Positions 1-14,571 of a stretch of 64,000 nt of DNA are shown here, in pieces. The stretch spans positions 160,001 through 224,000 of the forward strand of contig CAVPZX010000003.1 in assembly GCA_963710375.1 (NCBI GenBank). The letters are read 5' to 3'. A model generated the notes under the pieces. It saw only the letters and a list, made by a program, of their open reading frames with translations, searched no databases and was not told the DNA's origin. This DNA is from Nitrospirota bacterium (lineage in GTDB: Bacteria; Nitrospirota; Thermodesulfovibrionia; Thermodesulfovibrionales; Dissulfurispiraceae). Within the stretch, counting starts at the first letter, position 1. The number at the start of each line of letters is the position of its first letter. Made by a program: the position numbers and the translations under genes.

Positions 1-1145
1 TTGCGGTATGTCTGAGCCTATCCGTCCTTGCGGCCTGTGCAACTGATACAACAGCGTTAAAACAGCAGACGCTTCCGGAACAGTTCGGACCCGGTCCACT
101 CCGGATAGCAGTCCTGCCATTTGAAAATATGAGCGGAAAGGCCGCTCCCCTCAAGCCCCTCAAGCAATCGGCAGTTAATCGACTTAAGGCCCTGGGATTT
201 TCCATTTTGGACGATACAGCGCTTGATCGGTTCATGACAGCGCACAGACTGCGTTATACCGGAGGCGTAGATGCCCAGACAGCGCAGCAGTTCAAGAGCG
301 AGTTAGGCGTCGATGCAGTGCTTATCACCAATATCGAATTATACGATGATGCGGCGCCGCCGAAAATAGCCTTGCTCAGCCGCCTCGTCTCGACGGGTGA
401 ACCGCCGTCTATTCTTTGGATGAACGGTGTATCGCTTGCAGGCGATGAATCACCCGGGATATTAGGCGTGGGGTTGATCGAAGACCCCTCAAAACTGACA
501 GAAAAGGCATTGGGGAGTCTTTTCGGCTCCATGATGGATCATAGTTCCGGAAAAACAGGAACGATGAATATAGGCAGATGGGGGTATGGTCCCAGAGCTG
601 TCTTCGCATCTCCAGTTCTTCAAAGAGGCAAACGGTACACTATCGCTATAGTCCCGTTTACAAACAAGAGTGCGAGGCGGAATGCGGGCGACCTTGTTGA
701 ATTGCATTTTGCGGAACAACTCGTGAGGCGCGGAGATTTTGAGGTTGTCGAGCCTGGAATTGTGCGTCAGAACCTTTTAAACCTGAGACTGGTAATGCCC
801 GAAGGCATATCTCTTTCCGATATTGACGTTCTCTTTGACCTCCTCAACACTGACCTTGTGTTGATCGGAACTGTTTTCGAATATCAAGACCAGCAGCAGG
901 GCCGAACCGGGACGCCAAAAGTAGGATTTTCGACGTTTCTTATCGACAGGGCAAGCCGGAGGATAATCTGGTCATCCGGCAGCCATAATGGAGGCGATGA
1001 CTACATTTACGCCTTTGATTGGGGGAAGGTATACACTGCCCACGAGTTGATGTCGAGAATGGCCGCAAAGATCGTGCGCATACTGCATGAAAAACTCTAC
1101 TCAGAGCCGAAGGGCATGCTGACAGGAACGTTGCCGAAATCATGA
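1..1145 (+). CDS. Outer-membrane lipoprotein with two tandem alpha/beta (CsgG/TolB_N/GNA1162-like) domains; 5'-partial
   Basis: The frame of ORF 129..1145 is open back to the window start, reading AVCLSLSVLAA-CATD (lipobox LAAC). Two repeats begin with IAVLPFEN and IAIVPFTN. Confidence 0.75.
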   Translation, partial: AVCLSLSVLAACATDTTALKQQTLPEQFGPGPLRIAVLPFENMSGKAAPLKPLKQSAVNRLKALGFSILDDTALDRFMTAHRLRYTGGVDAQTAQQFKSELGVDAVLITNIELYDDAAPPKIALLSRLVSTGEPPSILWMNGVSLAGDESPGILGVGLIEDPSKLTEKALGSLFGSMMDHSSGKTGTMNIGRWGYGPRAVFASPVLQRGKRYTIAIVPFTNKSARRNAGDLVELHFAEQLVRRGDFEVVEPGIVRQNLLNLRLVMPEGISLSDIDVLFDLLNTDLVLIGTVFEYQDQQQGRTGTPKVGFSTFLIDRASRRIIWSSGSHNGGDDYIYAFDWGKVYTAHELMSRMAAKIVRILHEKLYSEPKGMLTGTLPKS

Positions 1146-1314
1146 ATCTGAGTTGCAGACAGGTGGGGTTCAAAATTGAAAATGGTATGCTCAATGTGAT
1201 AGCATATTATCCTGTGGTTACATTCATTTATTCAAACAAATTCCCGGAACAAGCTGTCAAAGATTCTAATGGTTTGCTGTGAGGATTCCGGAATTGCACA
1301 TAGGGGGAAATCCA

Positions 1315-3108
1315 GTGGAGAAAATTACTTGTAAGATAGTTGTGTTTGTTTGTGCACTTATGCTGCCTATGTATTTTGCGGTCCCGGCGCGCGCAGAAGA
1401 TAAAAAAGTGAATGCAGAAAACGCTGTCCCTGCGCATGAGGCTGCCGGCGCTGAGGCAAAACCTGCACCGCAGGCCGGCGCAGGCGAGGTGGTTATAGGC
1501 CTGAATATACCGCTTCTCTCACCGCTTTTTTCCGAAGTCCCCCTGGCAAAGGTAAACGACGAGACGGTCACAGTGAAGGAAATCAGGGATGCAGTTATCG
1601 CTTCGCACGAAGAAAGGACTGAAGAGAAGGCCGCTCAAAAGATAAATTATGTTGAAATACTTGACCGGCTGATTAACTCGAAGCTTATCCTGCAGGAGGC
1701 CCGCGGAATGGGCATCGACGAGCTGCCTGACATAAAAGAGGCGATTTCCGCCTATGGGAAAGAAATGCGCAAAAATCTGCTGCTGATGCGGGCCACGAAA
1801 AACGCGAAGGCGGACCCTGCAGAAGTCGATAAGATATATAAAGATATGATCAGGGAGTGGAAGATCAAATCTGTGCTCTTTTTCCAGGAAGAGGATGCGA
1901 AGAAGATGCTGGAGGGCATCAAGGCAGGAAAGAGCTTTGATGAACTGGCTGAAAAGGCGGTAGCAGACAAAAAAGCTAAGGGAAATTTGAAGGAAGATTT
2001 CATCGGGCCGGCCAATCTACTGCCGCAGGTGACTCAAGCTGTTGCGTCGATAAAGATCGGTTCAGTAACTCCCGTCGTCAAGATTTTGGCAGGCAAGGAA
2101 AATTCCGGATATGCCGTGCTCAAGCTTGTTGACGTGCGTTATGTAGACAATAAAGAGGCAAAAGAAAAAGCTGAGCAGGAGTCGCTTCAACACCAGAAGG
2201 CCAAAATGATTCAGGAGTATGGTAAAACGCTTATCAAGAAATACGATGTAAAAGTCAATAAGCAGCTCCTTAAGCAACTTGATTTTACCGCAAAGAAGCC
2301 CGGGATCGAAAAACTCTCGCAGGACAGGCGGGTACTTGCGGTAATAAAGGGAGAAAAGCCGATCACTATTGGGGTTGTCACCGTTGAGGTCAAGAAGTCC
2401 TTCTTTCATGGGTTAAAGGAGGCGCTCGCCGAAAACCGGGTCAATGACAAGAAATTTGAAGTCCTGGAGGGCTTGATCGACAAAGCACTAGAGGAAAAAG
2501 AAGCAGCCAAGCAGGGTTTGGACAAGACTGATGAATATAAGAACATGATGAAAGAATATGGGAACTCCGTTATTTTCGGCACTTTTATAGAAAAGGTCAT
2601 AGCTCCTGATGTGAAACTTACGAAGGAGGAAATTGAAACATATTACAAGGAACATATAAGCGAATACACCACTCCCGCGATGATCAGTTTAGACGGTCTG
2701 GCCTTTGCAAAAAAAGAGGATGCCGAAAATGCCATAGAGAAACTGAGGAAGGGCACCGATTACAACTGGCTGGTCAGCAACGCCGAAGGGCAGGTAAAAA
2801 AGGACGCCAAGAACCTGCTCTCTTTTGAGGGTAATCTGCTTACTGTTAAGAGCATGCCTGAGGGATTACAGAAAGTTTTAGCCGGGGCGAAAGAGGATGA
2901 GGTGAAACTCTATGCTAGTCCCGATGGCTACTACTATGTAGTTGTTGTAAAACATATAGTTGCTCCTGAGTCTAAACCACTTTCTGAAGTTCAGCAGGAC
3001 ATAGCCGGCAAGGTATACGGCGGGAAGCTTAAAGATTCTGTGGAAGAATATGCGGCCAAGCTGAGAAAGGCCGGTGACGTTAGGATTTACCTTTCTAAAA
3101 CCGAGTGA
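1315..3108 (+). CDS. Periplasmic PpiC/SurA-type peptidyl-prolyl isomerase/chaperone with duplicated domains
   Basis: Signal peptide (ARA-ED), SurA-like N-domain (LAKVNDETVT..LDRLINSKLILQEA), two parvulin-like segments (GKSFDELA, GTDYNWL). GTG at 1315 follows a GGGGG RBS; the ORF track starts at 1279. Confidence 0.8.
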   Translation: MEKITCKIVVFVCALMLPMYFAVPARAEDKKVNAENAVPAHEAAGAEAKPAPQAGAGEVVIGLNIPLLSPLFSEVPLAKVNDETVTVKEIRDAVIASHEERTEEKAAQKINYVEILDRLINSKLILQEARGMGIDELPDIKEAISAYGKEMRKNLLLMRATKNAKADPAEVDKIYKDMIREWKIKSVLFFQEEDAKKMLEGIKAGKSFDELAEKAVADKKAKGNLKEDFIGPANLLPQVTQAVASIKIGSVTPVVKILAGKENSGYAVLKLVDVRYVDNKEAKEKAEQESLQHQKAKMIQEYGKTLIKKYDVKVNKQLLKQLDFTAKKPGIEKLSQDRRVLAVIKGEKPITIGVVTVEVKKSFFHGLKEALAENRVNDKKFEVLEGLIDKALEEKEAAKQGLDKTDEYKNMMKEYGNSVIFGTFIEKVIAPDVKLTKEEIETYYKEHISEYTTPAMISLDGLAFAKKEDAENAIEKLRKGTDYNWLVSNAEGQVKKDAKNLLSFEGNLLTVKSMPEGLQKVLAGAKEDEVKLYASPDGYYYVVVVKHIVAPESKPLSEVQQDIAGKVYGGKLKDSVEEYAAKLRKAGDVRIYLSKTE

Positions 3109-3119
3109 GGAGCCTGCAC

Positions 3120-5108
3120 ATGTGGCGGATCTTAATTGCAAAACACAGGAGAGGGTTGGCAGGGGCGGCATTGCTACTGTTGTGCATGATAGCAATCCTC
3201 TCTGCGGCGCTTGGTACTGCGCTGGCAGAGAGGAAATTTACCCGCAAGGAGTGCCTGGACTGCCATACGAAGTTTGCTGAAAAATACCTTTCCATGAAGA
3301 GCGTTCATGCCGTGGTTAAAGAAAAAAAATGCGAGGAATGCCACATAAGGCATGGACTGGTGCCTAAGAACGTCCTGAAAAAAGCGGGCAACGAGCTCTG
3401 TTTTACCTGCCACACAATAGAGAAGCTCGGCCTGACTAAGCCGCAGGTACATTCCGCATTGAAGTCAGGCAGTTGTACGCAGTGCCATAATCCCCACGCA
3501 TCGCAGGCCAGCCATCTGTTGAAAGCGGAAGGCAACGAGGTCTGTTACCAATGCCATAAAAAAGAAATTTTTGAAAAGAAGGTTGTGCATAAGGTGATGC
3601 AGACAGAGGGCTGCAAGGCTTGCCATTTCTCGCACAGCTCCGACGAGAAAAATCTCCTCACCAAGCCGGAGACGCAGTTGTGTCTTTCCTGTCATGACAA
3701 GGGCGCTGAAGCTTTTAAGAAGGCACACGGCGGATATCCGGTGGAGACAAAACTGTGTTCGGTCTGCCATAATCCACACTCATCAGAGCAGCCGAAACTG
3801 CTGAAAACGAGCGTTCATAACCCTGTGGCATCGGGCACGTGCGATGCCTGCCACGCCGATGCAAAATCCGCGAAACCGTTCGCCGTAACGCAAAGCGGCG
3901 GGAAGATGTGCGAGATGTGCCATGATTCAGAATCGTTAAGGGCAGGGGGAACGGTTGATCACGTCCCGTTCAAAAACGGACTCTGCCTCGAATGCCATAA
4001 TCCGCACGCCTCGGAAAATTTCAGGCTGCTCATGCTTGGCGGCAACAATCTTTGTTTCAAGTGTCATAAAGAAAAAGGTGTAAAGCCGATGTTCAGCCAC
4101 CCCGCGGTTTCCGGCGGTAAGGGCTGCCTCTCATGCCATGCACCCCATGCTGCAAAGAATCCGCGGCTCCTCCAGGTCAAAGATGGAGATATCTGCCTGA
4201 CCTGCCACGTAAAAATGAAAGAGGTGCTTAAGAGCAAAGTCATTCACCCGCCGTTTGCCGAGCAGATGTGCAGCACCTGTCACGATCCCCATGGTTCAAA
4301 TCTGACGGCCATGCTAAGGGACAGAATGGACAAGGTCTGCTACGGGTGCCATACCGATGCCGAAACACAGTTCGAAAAAACCTATATCCATAAGCCGGTG
4401 CGGACTGCACAATGTACTGCCTGCCATAGTCCTCACGGCTCTGCAAATGAGAAACTGCTGAAGGCTGAGGGGGCGGAGTTGTGCGAAAAGTGCCACAGCG
4501 AGCTTATGAAAGAAGTTAAAGGCGGAACAAACCACGTGCCATTTGCGGGAGGGATGTGCCTTACATGTCACAAACCTCACGCCAGTGATGTTTCCGGAGT
4601 GCTTGTCAACAAGCAGATTACACTATGCCTTACCTGTCATCCGGAAATCGGCAAAGGACTGGACGGGAGCATGAGCAAACACAAGCCTGTTGCGGCTGGT
4701 GAGTGCACAAAATGCCATAGCCCCCATAAGTCGAAAATAAATAAGCTGCTCCTCGCAGAGGGTCCTGATCTCTGCTTCTCCTGTCATAAGGACAAAAAGG
4801 AGAAAATGGAAAAGGAAAAGGCGCATCCGCCTGCTACCAGCGATTGTCTGACCTGCCACAAGCCGCACTATTCAGGCGAGAGGACACTGCTTGCCCAACC
4901 TGTTAAAGATCTCTGCAGCCAATGCCACGACCTGAAAGAAGAGACGTTCAGCAAGGCGCATATAGGGATTAATCCCGACGTCATCGACTGCAGGACGTGT
5001 CATGACCCCCATGCGTCGAACGACCCGAACTTCTTCAAGGACACCGTTCATCCGCCTTTTGCCGCCCGCACGTGTGAAGAATGCCACGTGGTTGGAGGTA
5101 AGAAATGA
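3120..5108 (+). CDS. Multiheme c-type cytochrome, 26 CXXCH, doubled-CXXCH repeat family
   Basis: 26 CXXCH motifs counted by hand in a repeating H-P-x4-CxxCH-xPH-x15-CxxCH pattern; signal peptide ALA-ER; GAGGAG RBS before ATG 3120. Confidence 0.95.
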   Translation: MWRILIAKHRRGLAGAALLLLCMIAILSAALGTALAERKFTRKECLDCHTKFAEKYLSMKSVHAVVKEKKCEECHIRHGLVPKNVLKKAGNELCFTCHTIEKLGLTKPQVHSALKSGSCTQCHNPHASQASHLLKAEGNEVCYQCHKKEIFEKKVVHKVMQTEGCKACHFSHSSDEKNLLTKPETQLCLSCHDKGAEAFKKAHGGYPVETKLCSVCHNPHSSEQPKLLKTSVHNPVASGTCDACHADAKSAKPFAVTQSGGKMCEMCHDSESLRAGGTVDHVPFKNGLCLECHNPHASENFRLLMLGGNNLCFKCHKEKGVKPMFSHPAVSGGKGCLSCHAPHAAKNPRLLQVKDGDICLTCHVKMKEVLKSKVIHPPFAEQMCSTCHDPHGSNLTAMLRDRMDKVCYGCHTDAETQFEKTYIHKPVRTAQCTACHSPHGSANEKLLKAEGAELCEKCHSELMKEVKGGTNHVPFAGGMCLTCHKPHASDVSGVLVNKQITLCLTCHPEIGKGLDGSMSKHKPVAAGECTKCHSPHKSKINKLLLAEGPDLCFSCHKDKKEKMEKEKAHPPATSDCLTCHKPHYSGERTLLAQPVKDLCSQCHDLKEETFSKAHIGINPDVIDCRTCHDPHASNDPNFFKDTVHPPFAARTCEECHVVGGKK

Positions 5109-6394
5109 GAGGAACTGCGATGTATTTTAGATACACATTGCTCCTTCTGATTTCCGTTGCCTGTGTCCTCTCATCCGGGACGCCTGCCCATTCAGAGGAA
5201 AATAAGTTCAACCTGAAGCTGGGGGCCAGAGGGAAGGTCTGCCTGAATTGTCACGTTGAAATGCAGGACAAGCTAAAAAATCCCTTCGTACACACCCCTG
5301 TCAAGGTCGGTGACTGTACTGGATGCCATAACCCTCACACGTCTTCTCACGGCAAACTCCTTGCCGCAGATCCCAGCAAGATATGCCTTACCTGCCATAA
5401 AGCGATGGTGCCTGAAAATGCGCGCAGCGCCCATAAAGTTGTTGTGGACAATAACTGTATCAAGTGCCATGACCCTCATTCCGCAAAGAACAAGTTTAAT
5501 CTGCTGCAAAGCGGCAATGAACTCTGTTTTGGCTGCCACAAAGATATGGGTAATGTGGTTACAAAAGTAAAGTTCAAGCATTATCCGGTGGAAAAAGGAT
5601 GTCTCACCTGCCACAACCCACATGCCTCGATAAAGGCAAAATTCCTCTTGAAGGACGAAGTGCCTTCGCTTTGCCTTGGCTGCCATAAGACCAATCAGCC
5701 TATGTTTACGAAAGCTCATATGAACTACCCGGTGCAAAGGGCACGTTGTACAACATGCCATAACCCTCACGGCTCTGACAGACCCGGCATTCTCTTTAAT
5801 AATGTCCATAAACCTGTTGCCGGCAAGATGTGCAACCAATGTCATGAAGACCCTTCATCCAGCAATCCTTTTGCTACCAGGAGGCCCGGTTTTGAACTAT
5901 GCCAGGGGTGCCACAGCGGTTTGATCAAGGATGTCTTCAGCAAGAACAGGATACACTGGCCTCTGTTGGACAAAAAGAGCTGCCTGACCTGCCACAACCC
6001 GCATGCTTCACCTGAACCCAAACTCCTTAAAGCCTCGATGCGGCAGGTATGCGGCGCTTGTCATGCCGACAGTATCCAGCGGCAGGACAGGTCACAGACC
6101 AAGCATCCGCCGATAAAGGATGGGATGTGCACCTCATGCCACGAGCCTCATGCCGGTGACAGTCCATACTTTTTCATAAAGCCGACAGTTATCGAATTAT
6201 GCGGCACATGCCATGATTGGGAAAAGCATTCATCGCACCCGCTCGGTGAAAAGTTCATCGACCCGCGGAACAAGAATCTGACGATTCAGTGCCTTAGCTG
6301 TCACCGGGCTCACGGCACCGAACATAAGTCCTTTATTTATGCTTCACCGGTTAGTGCGTTATGCACACAGTGCCACGTTAAATATCAGAGGTGA
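5105..6394 (+). CDS. Multiheme c-type cytochrome, 16 CXXCH, doubled-CXXCH repeat family
   Basis: 16 CXXCH motifs counted; signal peptide AHS-EE; ATGA overlap with the upstream stop. Confidence 0.95.
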   Translation: MRGTAMYFRYTLLLLISVACVLSSGTPAHSEENKFNLKLGARGKVCLNCHVEMQDKLKNPFVHTPVKVGDCTGCHNPHTSSHGKLLAADPSKICLTCHKAMVPENARSAHKVVVDNNCIKCHDPHSAKNKFNLLQSGNELCFGCHKDMGNVVTKVKFKHYPVEKGCLTCHNPHASIKAKFLLKDEVPSLCLGCHKTNQPMFTKAHMNYPVQRARCTTCHNPHGSDRPGILFNNVHKPVAGKMCNQCHEDPSSSNPFATRRPGFELCQGCHSGLIKDVFSKNRIHWPLLDKKSCLTCHNPHASPEPKLLKASMRQVCGACHADSIQRQDRSQTKHPPIKDGMCTSCHEPHAGDSPYFFIKPTVIELCGTCHDWEKHSSHPLGEKFIDPRNKNLTIQCLSCHRAHGTEHKSFIYASPVSALCTQCHVKYQR

Positions 6395-7308
6395 TGAATA
6401 TGATAAAAAACATAATGAGACTTTTTGCTGTCATAGTGGTACTGCTCCTGCCGATTGGCGCATTCAGCGCCGACATTCCCAAGTTCCGCTTCATAACCTC
6501 AATATACACTGACAGTAAGGGAGACTCCTTAAAGCAGCCGGAGGGGGTGGCCTGCAACTATAAATCGCTTGTTGTTGTGGCCGATACGGGGAAAAACCGT
6601 CTAATTAAATATACCTTCTCTGACGGCTCATTGCAGGGGGGAGACGAGCTGCCTGTTTCAGGACTGTCCAATCCGCTGCGGGTCCAGGTGAATTCAAAAG
6701 GAGAGATCTTTGCCCTTGACGGAAAAGAGCGCCGTATTGCACGGATAAGCCGGGAGGGTGCATTAATGGGTTATGTCACACCCCAGGGGCTGCCGGCTCC
6801 CCCTGATTTTATTCCGAGGAGCTTCAGGATCGATGGAAACGATGCTATTTACATCATCGATATATTTAATGCACGCGTGCTGGTCCTCGATCCGTCGATG
6901 AAATTCATACGGCTGCTGCCATTCCCCGACAACTATGGTTTTATATCGGACCTTGCAGTAAATGCGCAGGGCACTATTTTTTTGATCGACAGCGTGAACT
7001 CTGTAGTGTATTCGGCCGACAAGAATGCGAGCGGTTTTGCGCCGCTGACAAAGCCTCTGAAAGAAAATATAGCCTTTGCCGCCAATATCGCCCTTGATAA
7101 CAATGGCACGATCTACCTGGCTGACCAAAACAGCAGTACTATAGTCACCATCAATAAAGACGGTTCTTTTCAGACAAGGCATTTGAGCATGGGATGGAAA
7201 GACGGTATGCTTCACTATCCCACTCAAATGTGCATCACCAACAGCGGTGACATGTTCATTGCAGACAGGGACAACAACAGGATTGGGATATTCAACATTG
7301 TCCAATAG
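6391..7308 (+). CDS. NHL-repeat beta-propeller protein, exported
   Basis: Repeats PEGVA..VVADTGKNR, IYIIDIFNARV, IYLADQNSSTI, MFIADRDNNRI; signal peptide. Confidence 0.9.
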   Translation: MMNMIKNIMRLFAVIVVLLLPIGAFSADIPKFRFITSIYTDSKGDSLKQPEGVACNYKSLVVVADTGKNRLIKYTFSDGSLQGGDELPVSGLSNPLRVQVNSKGEIFALDGKERRIARISREGALMGYVTPQGLPAPPDFIPRSFRIDGNDAIYIIDIFNARVLVLDPSMKFIRLLPFPDNYGFISDLAVNAQGTIFLIDSVNSVVYSADKNASGFAPLTKPLKENIAFAANIALDNNGTIYLADQNSSTIVTINKDGSFQTRHLSMGWKDGMLHYPTQMCITNSGDMFIADRDNNRIGIFNIVQ

Positions 7309-7370: not shown

Positions 7371-8027
7371 TTAAGGCTTTTGCAGCTGAAGGCCGCTCAT
7401 TTTAAGTCCGTCAATAAGGCTTTTGAACCTCTTGTAGGATTCTCCGGATTTATTTCCGTCCAGCGCCACAATGTCTCTGACTTTTGCATTCGCCGAGAGG
7501 AGTGCGCCTTCAAAGCGTTCAGCCTCTTCCCGTTGACGTTCTGTTTTTGTTCTTTCTGTTTTTTCTGTTTCTATTTTCTCCTCATCCGCAATTTTTCCGA
7601 TAGTATCGACATCCGGTCTTTGTTTGGTTTGCTCCTTATTTTCAGGTGATTGTTCAACTTTGTCCTCTTGCGCGCCATCCGGTTTTGCCATAGCAGCAAC
7701 AGCATCGCTGATAAACCTGTCAAGATCAGCGGAAGCACTGCTTGTGTAAAACGCGCTCAGCGGAACATCCACGACATTTACGGATTTCTCTTCTATAGCA
7801 TCCAGAAATGAATTCACGGATAAAGCTGCCCTGTTATATGAATCAACAAGAGGTTTGCGTTTATCGCCGGTAAGGTCTTTTCTTGCGCTTACCTGATCAG
7901 CCAAGTAGTTTGCAAGCAGGATTTTCTCGCATGCCGCCCTCAGCCCGTCAGTCCTTTTGACTTCGTAGCACCCTGCCAAAAACAGGCATACTGCTATAAT
8001 AAATGCAATACAAACTGTTTTCTCCAT
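7371..8027 (-). CDS. Hypothetical lipoprotein
   Basis: Lipobox LAG-C after a hydrophobic stretch (from MEKTV); helical body with a charged low-complexity insert (EKIET EKTER TKTER). Confidence 0.65.
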   Translation of the reverse strand: MEKTVCIAFIIAVCLFLAGCYEVKRTDGLRAACEKILLANYLADQVSARKDLTGDKRKPLVDSYNRAALSVNSFLDAIEEKSVNVVDVPLSAFYTSSASADLDRFISDAVAAMAKPDGAQEDKVEQSPENKEQTKQRPDVDTIGKIADEEKIETEKTERTKTERQREEAERFEGALLSANAKVRDIVALDGNKSGESYKRFKSLIDGLKMSGLQLQKP

Positions 8028-8055
8028 AGACGCGACTTCCTGTTCCCAGGACATG

Positions 8056-8628
8056 TCAAAGCTGGTGGAATGCGCGGATTTCTTCCTTCATTCTCTCCAC
8101 AGCAGACTGGAGCGATAGGGCGCTCGATAACGATGGAGTACCCGTGAGCATTGATGTGCTGAGTTCTGTTGACGCTGCGGACAATGCCGGCTGCTGCTCT
8201 TTAATCCGCAGAATTTTTTCCCGAAGACTTGCCCGCATCTCATCCAAACCCATGGCCAGGTCCTGAAACTCATCCCCCTTTCTGAGGACGACCTTGCTTG
8301 CAAGGTCGCCGCCGGCAATCCCTGCAAGGCTTCTTTTGATCGCAAAAAGCGGCGGGGAAAGCCGCTTCAAAAGCGAATGAATAATCTGAGCAAGAATGCC
8401 TGCAAAAACTACAAGCGTAACCACCTGCACGCCGATAGTAAGGGGGAGGAGCAGTTCGTTTATTGTAGAAATATCGCAATAGGACGAATAACACAAGACC
8501 GTCAGCTTTTTCTGGGCAACATAGATAAACAGCATGACTGTGACAGCCGCCCATATTGTCGCAAGGACGACAAACCGCATAATGAAACGGGATTGAAGAT
8601 CTTTATTGATAAAATAATTTCTTCTCAT
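8056..8628 (-). CDS. Two-TM HAMP-domain membrane protein without output domain
   Basis: N-terminal RRNYFINKDLQSRFI, two TM helices, HAMP motif (PLFAIKRSLAGIAGGDLASKVVLRKGDEFQDLA), short coiled coil. Confidence 0.8.
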   Translation of the reverse strand: MRRNYFINKDLQSRFIMRFVVLATIWAAVTVMLFIYVAQKKLTVLCYSSYCDISTINELLLPLTIGVQVVTLVVFAGILAQIIHSLLKRLSPPLFAIKRSLAGIAGGDLASKVVLRKGDEFQDLAMGLDEMRASLREKILRIKEQQPALSAASTELSTSMLTGTPSLSSALSLQSAVERMKEEIRAFHQL

Positions 8629-8664: not shown

Positions 8665-9243
8665 TCATGTCCTGATTTCCGAGAGGCTCCTCTCGATTTT
8701 TTTTATATTGCTTTCCATTTCTTCTGCCGACTGCCTGATTGCTGCAGTATCATGGCCATTCCGGATAATTTCGGCTGCAGCCCTTGACTGCATCTCAAGA
8801 GTGTCGAGACAGGCCGTAATTTCAGAAATACGGGACCTGTACCGGCTCGCCACATCATTTAGAAAAATCTTCATGTCCTTCAGGTTGTCCTTTGAGCGAA
8901 AAGAGAAATTGCAGGTCAGATCGCCCTGAGCGATTTTGGCCGCCTCAACTCCGAGGCGATAGGCAGGGCCGGCTATGCGGTGAGAATAGAACAAATGAAA
9001 CACAGCCAGAGCCAGAGCAATAACAATAGAAATGGCCGCATAGACGCTTGCCACTTTCCATATAAGGTCTTTCCGGATCGATTGCACTGCTGCCAATGTG
9101 TTATGAAAGCCCTGACCCAGGTTTGCCGGAAACAACAAAGAGACTGCCCAACAGGCCATAGCAGCACCGAGCGAAACAATTACGAATGTAATTATATATA
9201 AGAATATTCGATAATTTTTCTGTGTAACGAGTCCCTTCTGCAT
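8665..9243 (-). CDS. Two-TM HAMP-domain membrane protein without output domain
   Basis: Two TM helices, SHRIAGPAYRL..IAQGDLT..RSKDNL HAMP motif. Start at MQKGL (9243) preferred because the longer ORF runs toward the MITE. Confidence 0.75.
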   Translation of the reverse strand: MQKGLVTQKNYRIFLYIITFVIVSLGAAMACWAVSLLFPANLGQGFHNTLAAVQSIRKDLIWKVASVYAAISIVIALALAVFHLFYSHRIAGPAYRLGVEAAKIAQGDLTCNFSFRSKDNLKDMKIFLNDVASRYRSRISEITACLDTLEMQSRAAAEIIRNGHDTAAIRQSAEEMESNIKKIERSLSEIRT

Positions 9244-9332
9244 ATGCGCCCTTTCAATAACAATATCATCAGTCTTCCAGCTACAAGATACTTTAACAGA
9301 TGAGTAATCATAGTGCAAGTGGCGCCACCGCT

Positions 9333-9546
9333 GGGTAGTGGGCCAGTTTGTTTTTGTTCTGTATCACCTGGGTTATCAGTAGTGGGCGAGTAACCTGCAC
9401 CCCAAAAAGTCTTACGACTTGTTGGGGACCCCGTCCGCCGAGCCCACATATATAGAAGTGGCGACCACAGATAATGCTCAATATAGGCCAGTGATTGAAT
9501 TGAACGGCTAATTGATACAGAGCAAAAACAAACTGGCTCACTACCC
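9333..9546. mobile_element. MITE-like element family A, copy 1 (with 42-bp internal insertion)
   Basis: About 34-bp imperfect terminal inverted repeats gggtagtgggccagtttgtttttgttctgtatca / tgatacagagcaaaaacaaactggctcactaccc; near-identical inverted copy at 39729-39900. Confidence 0.85.
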
Positions 9547-9661
9547 AAAGGAATGATGGTGGAGGCGGCAGATCAATACATGTTAAAATTAAAGTGATAT
9601 ACTTTCTTTAATAATCGAATGCGTTGCTGTAAAATGAAACTGAATGAATCAGGCAAAGGCC

Positions 9662-10912
9662 ATGAAAAAAAGTATAAAACTTTATGTATCCCTTATAGTA
9701 GTATGTTTTGTCTGTAGCCGGCTGAGTCCGGCTGGTGCAACCCCTTCCCCTGCCTTTCATAGGGGAGGGACTAATGAGTGTCAGGAATGCCACACCAACA
9801 AAAATGCCGACTCAAGAGATTTTGCTCAAATGCTCCGTGAAATAAAAGGGTTGAACAGACCTCGATCGGACAAGAGCAGCGATTTAAGAGGATCGGATGA
9901 GAGTTCGACCTGCCTTCGCTGCCATGAGGCTCCCAGAGGCACACGGAACCCTACCGGACATTATGTCGCAACCAATATCTCCGATTTGCGCGGCGGCCTG
10001 CCTCCTTCACAAATGACGCCCGGGGGAGACTTCGGATGGTTAAAGAAGAGTTACTTCTGGAAACCGCCTGACGAACGAGGTCCCGGTCATTGGAGCTCCG
10101 GCTTCCTGCACGGGCATAGTATTTTAGCAATGGACTACGGATATGACGGCAATAGCGACTACTATACTGCACCGGGTGGAAGCTATCCGGCAAGAAATCT
10201 TTCCTGCATTAGCTGCCACGATCCGCATGCTACAATTGCTAAAGGTCCTGGAGATAGAGGCTCTTATCGCTTGCTGGGCGGGAAGGGCTATTCACCTAGC
10301 TCAGCCGGAGGTATGGCGTTCGCTATTGACCCGCCTGTGGCTGTTGCTCCGCGCGGCTATAACAGGGCCGAGTATGCAACCGAGACCAGGGTTGCTTATG
10401 GAAAGGGAATGTCAGAATGGTGCACAAATTGCCATGCAAACAGTTGCTCAGGAAGTTACGGCCATGCCGTCTGCAATAATGCCAGGTTCGGCGTGGTAAT
10501 TGCCGCCAATTATAACGCATATCGGAAAACAGGAGACCTCAACGGAATGGAAAGCAGATCATTCACCTCGCTTGTACCGTTCGAGGAGGGTACGGATAAC
10601 ATTTCGTTTCTCCATCAGCACGCGAACACAGATGGAAGATACACCAGCGGCCCTGGCCCGAGTGCCAATGTAATGTGTCTGACCTGCCATAGGGCGCATG
10701 CATCTGCCTGGGACAACATGACACGATGGAACATGACCACGCCGTTTATCGTTTATAAAGGTAATTACCCGGGGATCGATAACGGTTCGCCTGTGAGATT
10801 GGCGCAGGGACGTACTTCCGCCGAGACAAAAAAAGCATATTATGACAGGCCCGCTACCTTTTTTGCCTCGTATCAAAGGAGCCTGTGTGATAAGTGCCAC
10901 CCAAAGGACTGA
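9662..10912 (+). CDS. Hexaheme OmcS/OmcT-family (cytochrome nanowire family) c-type cytochrome
   Basis: 6 CXXCH plus OmcS hallmark motifs in the OmcS order: FHxGG..ECxxCH, QMTPGGDFGWxKK, APGGxYP, YRxLGG, AVAP..YNR.E...TRVAYG.GMSEWC.NCH, SLxPFEEG, CLxCHRAHAS, QGR, YQRxLCxKCHxKD at the C-terminus. Confidence 0.93.
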   Translation: MKKSIKLYVSLIVVCFVCSRLSPAGATPSPAFHRGGTNECQECHTNKNADSRDFAQMLREIKGLNRPRSDKSSDLRGSDESSTCLRCHEAPRGTRNPTGHYVATNISDLRGGLPPSQMTPGGDFGWLKKSYFWKPPDERGPGHWSSGFLHGHSILAMDYGYDGNSDYYTAPGGSYPARNLSCISCHDPHATIAKGPGDRGSYRLLGGKGYSPSSAGGMAFAIDPPVAVAPRGYNRAEYATETRVAYGKGMSEWCTNCHANSCSGSYGHAVCNNARFGVVIAANYNAYRKTGDLNGMESRSFTSLVPFEEGTDNISFLHQHANTDGRYTSGPGPSANVMCLTCHRAHASAWDNMTRWNMTTPFIVYKGNYPGIDNGSPVRLAQGRTSAETKKAYYDRPATFFASYQRSLCDKCHPKD

Positions 10913-10962
10913 AACCGGGCAGCAAAGAAATTATCACTATAAAGAGGGGGAATTTTCAGACA

Positions 10963-12381
10963 GTGAGCGGCGATGAAAAAAGCAAGAGTATAGTCGACAG
11001 GATTTGGGATTTATTTTCTTCCATAAAGCTTGCGGTGGTAGTTTTCACCATTATCTCGGCCACCTCTATCGTGGGCACCGTAATTGAACAACAAGCCGAA
11101 CCTGAGCAGAATATAAAACTGCTGGCAAAGTTTGTAGGTGTGGATTTTGCTCCAACTGCCTTTCGCATATTGGATACGCTGGGTTTTACCGATATGTTCC
11201 GCTCCTGGTGGTTCATGGCCCTACTGTTCATATTCACGGCTAATCTGGTCATCTGTTCTTTTGAGAGACTTCCCAAGATATGGAAGCTTGTCAAGGAGCC
11301 GGTCAAGCCTGTAACAGCTGAACGGTTAAATGCCCTGTCGATAAAACGGGAGATTATTTTAAAAGAGAAAGTTGACAAAGCCGCAGAGCATGCCGGGGCT
11401 GTACTGAAGAGGAATGGATTCAGGGCCGGCGAGAGGAAAGAGGACAACGGGGTCCAGTTATACGCTGAAAAGGGCAGATACAGCAGGCTTGGAGTATACA
11501 TTACACATCTGAGCATACTGCTGATATTGGGTGGAGCGGTAATAGGGATGATTTTCGGGTTCAATGGCTCGCTTAATTTACCGGAAGGGATGTCATCCGT
11601 TGTAGCCTATAAGAGCAGCGGAATGCAGATACCGCTGGGGTTTGAGGTCCGGTGCGATAATTTCAATGTTTCATTTTACGACAATACTGATACTCCCAAA
11701 TCATATAAAAGCTGGCTGACTATAATAGAGAGCGGTAAGGAAGTAAAGGGAAAGGTGATAGATGTGAACAACCCATTACAGCATAAAGGGATTACATTTT
11801 ATCAGGCCAGTTACGGGTATGCTCCGTCGAGGAATTCGATATTTAAATTCAGCGTAACATCGAATGCCGGGACAAGAGGAGATGTGAATGTTAAATTTGG
11901 AGAACCGTTCACGATACCCGGGACAGCAGTGACCGGGAAAGTTATTGACTTTAGTCCTGCAATCGGTATGGACGAGTCCGGGAAGCTGTATACGTATGCG
12001 GAAATGATGAATAACCCGGCAGCATTTGTGGAATTTACAGAGAACGGGAAAATGAAATACCGGCAGTGGATACTGGTGCGGTTACCGCAGACATGGAAGG
12101 TGGCGGATGGGACAGTTGAGTTCAAGCATTTATGGGGAGCACAGTATACCGGATTGCAGGTGAGGAAAGACCCTGGAGTATGGCTTGTCTATCTGGGGTG
12201 CATGGTTATGGCCATGGGACTGTATACCGCATTTTTCATGGGACATAGCAGGGTATGGATATGGGTGAGGGAAGACAAGGGCGGAGCAAAGGTTACGATA
12301 GCCGGGTCAGCGAATAAAAATAAGATCTCTTTTGAACAGAAGATAGATAAAATGACAAAAGAAGTAAGCAGTAAGCAGTAG
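10963..12381 (+). CDS. resB: Cytochrome c biogenesis protein ResB/CcsB (System II)
   Basis: FSSIKLAV..SIVGTVIEQ, DMFRSWWF, EKGRYSRLGVYITHLSIL, IDVNNPL..GITFYQASYG, TGLQVRKDPG. GTG 10963 is the likely start. Confidence 0.93.
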   Translation: MSGDEKSKSIVDRIWDLFSSIKLAVVVFTIISATSIVGTVIEQQAEPEQNIKLLAKFVGVDFAPTAFRILDTLGFTDMFRSWWFMALLFIFTANLVICSFERLPKIWKLVKEPVKPVTAERLNALSIKREIILKEKVDKAAEHAGAVLKRNGFRAGERKEDNGVQLYAEKGRYSRLGVYITHLSILLILGGAVIGMIFGFNGSLNLPEGMSSVVAYKSSGMQIPLGFEVRCDNFNVSFYDNTDTPKSYKSWLTIIESGKEVKGKVIDVNNPLQHKGITFYQASYGYAPSRNSIFKFSVTSNAGTRGDVNVKFGEPFTIPGTAVTGKVIDFSPAIGMDESGKLYTYAEMMNNPAAFVEFTENGKMKYRQWILVRLPQTWKVADGTVEFKHLWGAQYTGLQVRKDPGVWLVYLGCMVMAMGLYTAFFMGHSRVWIWVREDKGGAKVTIAGSANKNKISFEQKIDKMTKEVSSKQ

Positions 12382-12397
12382 GCAAAGGAGGTTATAC

Positions 12398-13483
12398 ATG
12401 GACAGTTCTCAGTTTTTCGGCATAGCGAGCATTGCGTATATACTGGCAATGGTTGCGTATATAGCGTATCTGGCATTCAAGAATTCCGTGGTCGGGGTTA
12501 TCGCGACAACAATAACAGTGGTTGGATTTATCTCGCATACAATAGCATTTATTCTGCGTTGGAAAGAGTTTTACGAAATCGGCCAAATGGGGATACTGAG
12601 AGCGATACCCCTTACGAACCTCTATGAATCGCTGATATTCTTTGTCTGGTGCGTGATACTGGCGTATCTGATCATCGAGTGGAAATACAAGAACCGGTCG
12701 TTCGGAGCTTTTATCACCCCCATCGCGGGAATGGCGCTGGCGTTTATCGACATATCGGGGATGGATAAAAATATACACCCTCTGATACCTGCGCTTCAGA
12801 GCAACTGGCTGCTGGCGCATGTAACAATGAGTTTTCTCTCCTATGCAGCCTTTGCCATATCCTTTGCCACATCCATGATGTACCTGATTATTACGACTGA
12901 AGACAAAAAAAGCGCTCCTTATATTTTCTGGACGATTGCCTTGGGAGTATTTGTTTCGGTGTTTCTGGCCATGGGCATAGATTTTTTAGTATTCAAAGTT
13001 GCGATGAGTTCACCGGAATCGTTCATAAAGAGCTACCTGTTCAAGGCTACTTACAGGAACAGTTCAGGGGCGGTATCGCTCGTCAGTTATTTAGGGACGG
13101 CTGTTTTTATCTTCGTAATCTGGAAGTACGGCTATTTATTAAGAAACGTTATAACATCGTTCTCTATCTCACAGGATCTGCTTGATGACCTGACATATAA
13201 GAGTGTAGCAGTGGGGTTTCCGATATTCACACTTGGCGGACTGATATTCGGTGCGGTATGGGCAGACCAGGCGTGGGGCAGGTATTGGAGCTGGGACCCG
13301 AAAGAGACATGGTCATTGATAACGTGGTTTGTATATGCTTTTTATCTGCACGCGAGGTTTTTAAGAGGCTGGAGGGGCAGGAGGATAGCGGTAGTTGCGG
13401 TCGTGGGATTTGTCTGCACGGTCTTCACCTACCTGGGTGTTAACCTTCTGCTGAGCGGCCTGCATTCATATGGGGGAGGGTAA
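12398..13483 (+). CDS. ccsA: Cytochrome c biogenesis heme-handling protein CcsA/ResC (System II)
   Basis: WWD motif WADQAWGRYWSWDPKETWSLITW, PALQSNWLLAHV, GLHSY. Confidence 0.95.
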   Translation: MDSSQFFGIASIAYILAMVAYIAYLAFKNSVVGVIATTITVVGFISHTIAFILRWKEFYEIGQMGILRAIPLTNLYESLIFFVWCVILAYLIIEWKYKNRSFGAFITPIAGMALAFIDISGMDKNIHPLIPALQSNWLLAHVTMSFLSYAAFAISFATSMMYLIITTEDKKSAPYIFWTIALGVFVSVFLAMGIDFLVFKVAMSSPESFIKSYLFKATYRNSSGAVSLVSYLGTAVFIFVIWKYGYLLRNVITSFSISQDLLDDLTYKSVAVGFPIFTLGGLIFGAVWADQAWGRYWSWDPKETWSLITWFVYAFYLHARFLRGWRGRRIAVVAVVGFVCTVFTYLGVNLLLSGLHSYGGG

Positions 13484-13486
13484 AAG

Positions 13487-13563
13487 ACAAGGTTAAGGCT
13501 AAGGTTGAGGTTAAGCAAGGTTTCTTTTTTTCCCCTTAACCTTAACCTTGACCTCAACCTTGT
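13487..13563. repeat. Hexamer-repeat palindrome (GGTTAA/GGTTGA)n ... (TTAACC/TCAACC)n
   Basis: Directly visible; related copies at 37225-37350 and 57498-57590. Confidence 0.85.
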
Positions 13564-13569
13564 TTTATT

Positions 13570-14571
13570 ATGAATATTCTCGGTATCGATACATCTTGCG
13601 ACGATACATCTGCCGCGGTAGTTTCGCACGGTGAGCAAATACTTTCTTCTATTGTTTCTTCTCAGACGGATATCCACAATAAGTATGGGGGCATTGTTCC
13701 CGAATTGGCGTCGCGCCGTCATGTCGAAATGATATGGCCTGTTGTCTATGAAGCCCTGAGTGCGGCAAATATTTCCATTGACGCAGTCAATGCCATTGCC
13801 GTGTGCTGCGGTCCAGGACTGATCGGATCGCTGCTGGTAGGATGCGGCTTTGCAAAAGCTGTGGGGTACGCACGAAACATTCCTCTTGTTGGAGTGAATC
13901 ATCTGGAGGGACATATTTTCTCGGTGTTCCTCGAAAAGGAGAAGCCTGAATTCCCTTTTTTGTCTCTGATCGCCTCTGGAGGACATACGACCCTTTTCAT
14001 TATCAACGGGTTCAGGCAATACAAGGAATTGGGCAGGACAAGAGATGATGCAGCAGGCGAGGCATATGATAAGGTTTCAAAGCTGCTGGGGCTTGGATAT
14101 CCCGGCGGTCCTCTTATAGACAGACTGGCCGGGGAGGGGAACGCCGGAGCATTTGAATTTCCCCGTGCCTGGCTGCCGGAATCCTTTGACTTCAGTTTCA
14201 GCGGCGTCAAGACAGCGGTCAAATTAGTTGTCGCTAAGGGCGCAGGATCGCTCAAAAATCAGGTCTTCCTGGCTGACATTGCCGCTTCCTTTCAGGCATC
14301 GGTGATCGATGTGCTCGTGAGAAAAGTTGAATTGGCTATAATAAAAACTGGAATACGCACTGTTGTGCTCTCGGGGGGTGTTGCCTCAAACAGTGGCCTG
14401 AGGAAGAAGATCAACGAGATGGCACATGAAAGAGAGGCAAAGGTTTTTTTGCCTTCGCCAGAACTCTGTACCGACAATGCCGCCATGATAGCGTCTGCCG
14501 GATACTATCATTACATTGCCGGAAATACAGCATCGCTCGACTTGAATCCCAAGGCTTACCTGCCGTTATAA
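13570..14571 (+). CDS. tsaD: tRNA N6-threonylcarbamoyltransferase
   Basis: ILGIDTSCDDT, GGIVPELASRRH, VNHLEGH, DDAAGEAYDK, CTDNAAMIA. Confidence 0.97.
   Translation: MNILGIDTSCDDTSAAVVSHGEQILSSIVSSQTDIHNKYGGIVPELASRRHVEMIWPVVYEALSAANISIDAVNAIAVCCGPGLIGSLLVGCGFAKAVGYARNIPLVGVNHLEGHIFSVFLEKEKPEFPFLSLIASGGHTTLFIINGFRQYKELGRTRDDAAGEAYDKVSKLLGLGYPGGPLIDRLAGEGNAGAFEFPRAWLPESFDFSFSGVKTAVKLVVAKGAGSLKNQVFLADIAASFQASVIDVLVRKVELAIIKTGIRTVVLSGGVASNSGLRKKINEMAHEREAKVFLPSPELCTDNAAMIASAGYYHYIAGNTASLDLNPKAYLPL

Follow-up and report, generated by a model that had tools for sequence, protein, structure and literature searches.

The hexaheme cytochrome OmcS (GSU2504) of Geobacter sulfurreducens (PDB entries 6EF8 and 6NEF) contains one heme that is ligated across the subunit border; we take the bridging ligand of this heme, heme 5, to be His16, which was reportedly described as the inter-subunit heme ligand by Wang in 2019. 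Eleven of the 12 axial histidines are intramolecular and the remaining one, on heme 5, originates from the neighbouring subunit (PMC6584659), a contribution also stated elsewhere (PMC12203936), and the hemes are stacked in sequence order (PMC6584659). The osc (omcS-companion) cluster comprises GSU2505-GSU2493 (PMC13194489, PMC12977616), and the OmcS-like paralog OscC (GSU2501), located just upstream of its eight-gene block, has no function assigned to it; the presence of such functionally unassigned OmcS paralogs renders annotation unreliable (PMC12977616). Initiation and termination of nanowires as well as electron hand-over have been posed as questions for OmcE (PMC13712944) and OmcS (PMC6584659). 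For OmcE filaments, "anchor" and "tip" cytochromes were proposed and a paralog-like tip with more exposed hemes was suggested, and no tip candidate was found in the OmcE operons (PMC13712944). This proposal addresses the same start/stop question as posed here, but for OmcE, and the discussion passages of that source do not mention OmcS paralogs devoid of His16.

The analysed window, a stretch of 64,000 nucleotides from a Nitrospirota genome (G000:C3:160001-224000), harbours an ORF for 416 amino acids at 9662..10912 (forward strand), which qualifies as an OmcS-family hexaheme cytochrome gene by sequence homology and six CxxCH motifs in OmcS spacing. Models specific for OmcS were not present among those of Pfam and NCBIfam. 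A likely Sec signal peptide (9662..9754, forward) would be cleaved after AGA or after SPA; from the Phe encoded at 9755 the protein reads FHRGGTNECQECHTNKN, and the mature chain may begin five residues before this Phe, with cleavage after AGA leaving TPSPA in front of FH. The sole match among PDB sequences was OmcS 6EF8 (E 2e-90), with codon 16 (AAA, 9800..9802, forward) placing a lysine opposite His16. The original prediction of Lys at this position is thus borne out by alignment and translation, and also by contigs of other runs: those of run X4 (9635-10028) and of run X5 from a different study (9600-10738), neither run being flagged as the source, cover the codon, read AAA rather than CAY and contain 0 differing letters. 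The exact protein is present on 6 contigs, and the two closest relatives (92% and 82% identity) likewise possess K at position 16, so that a sequencing error is ruled out; close relatives carrying taxon labels are labelled Nitrospirota.

Exactly three OmcS homologs are encoded in this genome. The other two possess His16 and the AKD end and are located just upstream of the window, 15-19 kb upstream of the Lys16 gene, sharing the region G000:C3:151184-159986 with genes D, E and F. The 3' part of the osc-like block (1..7308, forward) continues with genes for a lipoprotein (G), a PPIase (H), a 26-heme (I) and a 16-heme cytochrome (J) and an NHL protein, letters being assigned by gene order. Following the two omcS genes, the block thus encodes a YncE-type propeller, a putative barrel, two lipoproteins, the PPIase, both multiheme cytochromes and the NHL protein, i.e. 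the order D-E-F-G-H-I-J-NHL of the osc cluster; the same gene order occurs in genome G441, the OmcS of which matches the 6EF8 chain. Unlike G441, which has no His16-less paralog, the island of the window has one, and its genome contains no OscC-type copy. The Lys16 gene is situated past the osc block and outside its co-oriented run, beyond three genes on the opposite strand: a 227-aa putative lipoprotein (7371-8054, reverse), a small membrane HAMP protein (HAMP190; 8056..8628, reverse) and a small membrane protein with a HAMP-like region (HAMP217; 8665..9318, reverse), the latter divergent from the cytochrome gene. In Pfam and NCBIfam the putative lipoprotein remained without a match, and its Atlas matches were all below threshold; the Atlas offered no function for it or for HAMP190.

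The AlphaFold model (pLDDT 82; predicted without hemes) matches 6EF8 only (TM 0.82; Z 38.6, rmsd 3.6, 361 aligned residues), and the window protein has, as judged from this model, the OmcS fold. Likewise shared with OmcS are the six CxxCH motifs in order, the equivalents of five distal histidines, R397 and the xxD-stop. The two proteins differ by the absence of His16, M15, V6 and L37 from the window protein, an unrelated loop between hemes 1 and 2, the deletion of the lobe at OmcS 149-180 and two extra Cys, and their genes by the location of the former after the osc block and beside the HAMP pair. Along the gene (all forward), the heme 1 motif, a 39-residue His-free loop of low pLDDT and the heme 2 motif are encoded at 9779..9925, followed by the heme 3 motif with distal His158 and the position at which a lobe containing R151 and SGSY (about 149-180 in OmcS) is deleted at 10205..10270, the heme 4 motif with Cys231 and Cys240 flanking distal His237 (a candidate disulfide or thiolate ligand) at 10421..10474, the motif of heme 5, the neighbour-ligated one in OmcS, with distal His315 at 10676..10699, and finally Arg375 (corresponding to OmcS R397), the heme 6 motif and the PKD-stop (corresponding to OmcS AKD407) at 10877..10912, i.e. 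a retained C-terminal end.

The five distal histidines of the window protein are H2, H121, H158, H237 and H315, and we infer the pairing of each with a particular heme. Their OmcS equivalents (H2, H110, H147, H257 and H335) are 99-100% conserved in every clade of the family and invariant in all 69 members of the clade of the window protein, and H16 is 100% conserved in the OmcS and OscC clades; by elimination, this fits His16 as the bridging ligand. Since the other five distal histidines are intact, heme 5 of the window protein likely needs a ligand from outside. Compensating ligands considered were H119, which is also 100% conserved in OscC, H289, whose counterpart H309 exists in OmcS as well, and the loop residue M26, which is not conserved; all three were rejected, and a substitute His or Met specific to the window clade was not detected. 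The claim that the protein cannot supply the bridging histidine agrees with the His-free loop and with the clade-wide loss. A putative R151-D407 salt bridge at the OmcS interface was not found in the literature searched and is not used as evidence, and interface roles of R397, D407 and the lobe are presumed ones.

A tree was calculated from 322 non-redundant full-length homologs, taken from the best 120 of 2587 protein matches and from loci of Nitrospirota, Geobacterales and other genomes, after partial, frameshifted and over-520-aa homologs had been removed; the 132 His16-less proteins among them do not represent a family frequency, because relatives of the query are overrepresented in the set. 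The window protein resides inside a His16-less clade of 69 rows, apart from OmcS/T/J and OscC, with an SH-aLRT of 99 in an IQ-TREE check of 53 rows from which OmcS residues 13-98 were left out. Position 16 in this clade is occupied by K (24), D (10), T (8), E (7), N (4), R (4) or others (12), marking the lysine itself as incidental and uninformative, whereas the class without His16 and its mirror image would allow a direct test of wire ends. The alteration is more than a point change: heme 1 and heme 2 are spaced by 19-21 residues in 59 of the 69 members versus 38 in OmcS, the His16 loop having been deleted. The window protein is one of the ten members with a long loop; its nine long-loop relatives have K (8) or Arg (1) at position 16. 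The lobe is absent throughout the clade (69/69), 17 members possess an extra CxxCH N-terminal to heme 1, and the Ala directly before Phe1, present in 28/28 OmcS and 32/35 OscC proteins, is found in 49/69 members of the clade and in 2/51 of a sister His16-less group. A single clade for all His16-less rows was rejected (AU p 0.0007, for groups named after seeing a tree), hence the loss of His16 recurred; 22 members of a wider satellite clade have kept it. Seven-heme His16-less OmcS forms with the extra N-terminal CxxCH were encountered at L140:2073-3302, L148:1894-3135, L155:18129-19352 and in L061, and the genomes concerned often carry a second His16-less type.

The opposite end of the protein behaves differently. 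All 28 proteins of the OmcS clade stop three residues past the last CxxCH (AKD-stop), an xxD/E-stop is present in 131 of the 132 His16-less proteins (the exception having its His shifted by one), and 68 of the 69 window-clade members keep R397 together with the exact xxD terminus. In the OscC clade, His16 is present in 35/35 proteins and the xxD-stop in 0/35. Of the 188 alignment columns for which complete subunits have a consensus, V6, H16, N17, S18 and L37 are kept in both groups with His16 and an altered tail and lost in all three His16-less groups, while only S279 and R397 sort in the opposite way; V6, L37, R397 and S279, which had not been used to define the groups, thus follow the same division. 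R397 is found in 100% of the complete subunits, 9% of OscC, 0% of the second altered-tail group and 88-100% of the His16-less groups. In the window protein itself, R397 and D407 have their counterparts, S279 is replaced by Thr, and the Asn at position 17 is retained. Of 81 further sequences, 57 were complete, 12 lacked His16 (each of them having R/K397 and xxD) and 12 had an altered tail (11 without R397). Neither these nor the 322 homologs included a clear case without both His16 and the OmcS C-terminal end, counts which overstate independence as the sequences are related. The comparison thus points to a new reciprocal pattern, with His16-less proteins keeping the C-terminal end and OscC-type proteins keeping His16 and losing that end. 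It is limited to OscC-like groups, since 27 deep-branching altered-tail proteins keep R397, and there is no significant support for a separate origin of the second altered-tail group (AU p 0.17). OmcS, its paralogs and the osc cluster were known before; the His16-less class and its reciprocity with OscC appear to be new. No description of either was found in the portions of the literature covered by our search, to which Shen et al. 2025 with its supplements, said to deal with the osc (omcS-companion) cluster, did not belong.

GSU2501 had been named beforehand as a paralog in which position 16 should be tabulated, and it does not exemplify the loss, as the GSU2501-position paralog keeps His16. 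OscC resembles the window protein as an osc-linked OmcS-like hexaheme cytochrome with 45% identity to it, but its clade retains His16 (35/35) and the lobe and lacks R397 and the xxD terminus, thus forming a mirror image of the window class. Orthology of the two was rejected on gene position and residues: the window gene is located downstream of the osc block, and the gene upstream of the block is a complete His16 copy. Both clades are separate in IQ-TREE, but the AU test does not reject joining them (p 0.36). A second triad, observed in L146, L188, L193 and L280, consists of a complete subunit before the block and, after it, a His16-bearing copy with an ENDxYKQ-type tail followed by a copy devoid of His16, whose conserved HxHP or HxHA motif could provide closure of heme 5.

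The window protein is best explained as an acceptor-only end subunit, tip or base, of an OmcS-type filament and partner to the two complete OmcS proteins encoded upstream, a sequence-based reading to which we assign a probability of roughly 0.5. Given the stacking order, heme 1 of one OmcS subunit would meet heme 6 of the next, with His16 reaching heme 5 of that subunit. The open heme 5 of the window protein would then accept His16 from a complete OmcS, so that the protein would dock via the heme 5/6 face. Its heme 1 face would recruit no further subunit and may have been reshaped for electron transfer to a different partner or acceptor. Devoid of His16 but with an intact heme 5/6 end, the protein could be gripped and could not grip, and would therefore occupy the heme 1 end of the filament, at the distal tip or the cell-side base, and OscC-type proteins would occupy the opposite end. 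Deletions, inserts and the extra heme are all found at or near the freed heme 1 end, given the presumed position of the lobe. The reading is favoured by the tree, the kept tails, the reciprocal residues, the 81 further sequences, the recurrent loss of His16, the remodelled end and the co-occurrence described below. From the options offered by the original prediction, both a cap or terminal subunit and a monomer with an open heme remain viable, the former strengthened by the retained C-terminal face. Against the acceptor-only subunit, retention of the C-terminal residues could reflect no more than the wrapping of heme 6 by a monomeric protein, the gene diverges from the HAMP pair and lies outside the co-oriented osc run, the genome lacks an OscC type, and the 22 satellite-clade members have His16.

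Occurrence across genomes was tallied from fetched regions only, and many assemblies are incomplete. On this basis, a complete copy was also seen in 35 of the 43 genomes having a His16-less copy, and all three types in 27 of 74 genomes, with triads in G467, G197 and G454 added later. The gene directly upstream of D carries His16 in every case scored (shifted by one in L077), and His16-less copies recur right after the osc block or elsewhere. G441 possesses four paralogs, all with His16 (omcS, omcT and the genes in GSU2501 and omcJ position), and a fifth was not found among all 39 candidates scored. His16-less copies were detected in neither G441 nor G433, G442 and G342; considering that the OmcS of G441 matches 6EF8, filaments do not need such a copy. 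Conversely, an intact His16-less gene is present in G033 (98% complete, 230 contigs) and in G469, and no ortholog of His16-bearing omcS, oscD or oscI was detected in either. Both the genomes without a His16-less copy and these partnerless copies count against the acceptor-only reading. A His16 copy was likewise not seen in G215 and G418, and the His16-less copy without partners in G245 is broken. G469 also encodes other, very distant hexaheme proteins (L219, L221, L222; E about 1e-10 to the OmcS profile), one of them beside an NHL gene, which by sequence possibly represent a further filament family.

The main rival, possible though on balance doubtful, is that the protein acts on its own as a cytochrome of the periplasm or cell surface. 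Its heme 5 would be open or self-closed, and it would provide the adjacent HAMP pair with a redox carrier or sensor input, substituting for the 7-heme and 4-heme cytochromes found elsewhere. The usual order in 34 HAMP190 loci is HAMP217, 7-heme, HAMP190, 4-heme, and 11 HAMP pairs near an OmcS-like gene constitute one branch (SH 84) missing the enclosed 7-heme gene; 10 of these adjoin the window's His16-less clade, with which HAMP190 is co-inherited. Moreover, all three strong HAMP190 matches in Geobacterales flank a gene of this clade, and G033 has kept gene and HAMP pair with no osc block found. Such a function would leave R397 and the exact xxD terminus in 68/69 members unexplained, given their loss in OscC; the HAMP pair is missing from the other His16-less lineages, the L263 pair of the same branch adjoins a His16-bearing gene, and the G033 assembly is fragmented and contains a further complete HAMP-cytochrome module (L264). 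This module (HAMP217, 7-heme with hydrophobic N-terminus, HAMP190, 4-heme), possibly a redox-sensing system, is widespread in Nitrospirota (L237-L258, L264, L265), and comes after a 13-heme gene in L264 and L265; HAMP190 matches occur in 83 of 401 genomes.

An unlikely variant of a self-contained, possibly catalytic monomer would close heme 5 internally through a thiolate specific to the clade (Cys231 or Cys240), yielding a His/Cys heme. Two to three extra Cys within 25 residues past the heme 4 motif occur in 41 of the 69 clade members (three in 36 of these) and in none of the OmcS, OscC or other His16-less proteins. The remaining 28 members have none, however, and the presence of exactly two in the window protein suggests a Cys231-Cys240 disulfide. 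Polymerization without inter-subunit coordination, with which the predicted intact heme-stack fold agrees, has a precedent in OmcZ filaments lacking an inter-subunit His (PMC9473688). It is very improbable here, since OmcZ ligates all its hemes inside the subunit, while heme 5 would stay open in the window protein and the clade members show deletions, extensions or variation at the heme 1 end. Slightly harder still to credit is a dispensable duplicate drifting since the loss of His16: the gene is missing from several complete osc loci and the partnerless G245 copy is broken, but all six motifs and five distal histidines are invariant in 69/69 members, and the clade spans Nitrospirota and Geobacterales with a conserved position after the osc block. 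Lys16 replacing His16 in His/Lys-bridged filaments, another option of the original prediction, is the least credible and was rejected on conservation, because K, although the commonest residue (24/69) and present in 8 of 9 long-loop relatives, is replaced by other, mostly non-ligating residues in 45/69 members including the Arg of a close relative, and flanking M15, V6 and L37 are lost too.

Returning to the acceptor-only end subunit, a tentative and possibly incorrect generalization would be that OmcS wires consist of three subunit types encoded around the osc block, i.e. a two-faced repeat, a donor-only end (OscC type) and an acceptor-only end, the latter repeatedly arising by loss of His16. 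The heme 1 end of this acceptor-only piece would be exposed and interchangeable, with a short loop, a long insert or a seventh heme setting the contacts of the wire; by analogy, anchor and tip pilins might be comparable. Two marks, His16 on the one hand and Arg397 with the xxD terminus on the other, sort the paralogs into complete, donor-only and acceptor-only candidates. They thereby name proteins for tests of initiation and termination as well as natural caps for the control of wire length, and imply that counts of omcS-like genes overestimate the number of wire formers.

Next to the cytochrome gene, a resB-resC cytochrome c maturation pair is located at 10940..13573 (forward). A second copy (G000:C3:135282-137915; 2634 bp, 99.7% identical) is present on the far side, both copies bracketing the 33-kb omcS/osc island. 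Genome G386 of the same genus has one resB-resC copy and no omcS match, and the duplication suggests a recent gain or an excisable or amplifiable unit. A promoter scan yielded a result at chance level. A 216-bp MITE-like element with 35-nt terminal inverted repeats and about 20 related copies in the genome is located at 9332-9547, between HAMP gene and cytochrome gene, and could affect their shared promoter region. In L043-L044 and L036-L037, up to nine large genes for TPR-containing membrane proteins, possibly glycosyltransferases, lie between the osc block and the His16-less gene and resemble G000:C3:147211-149652. In G039, OscI and OscJ are fused into a single 42-heme ORF (L050:7967-11134).
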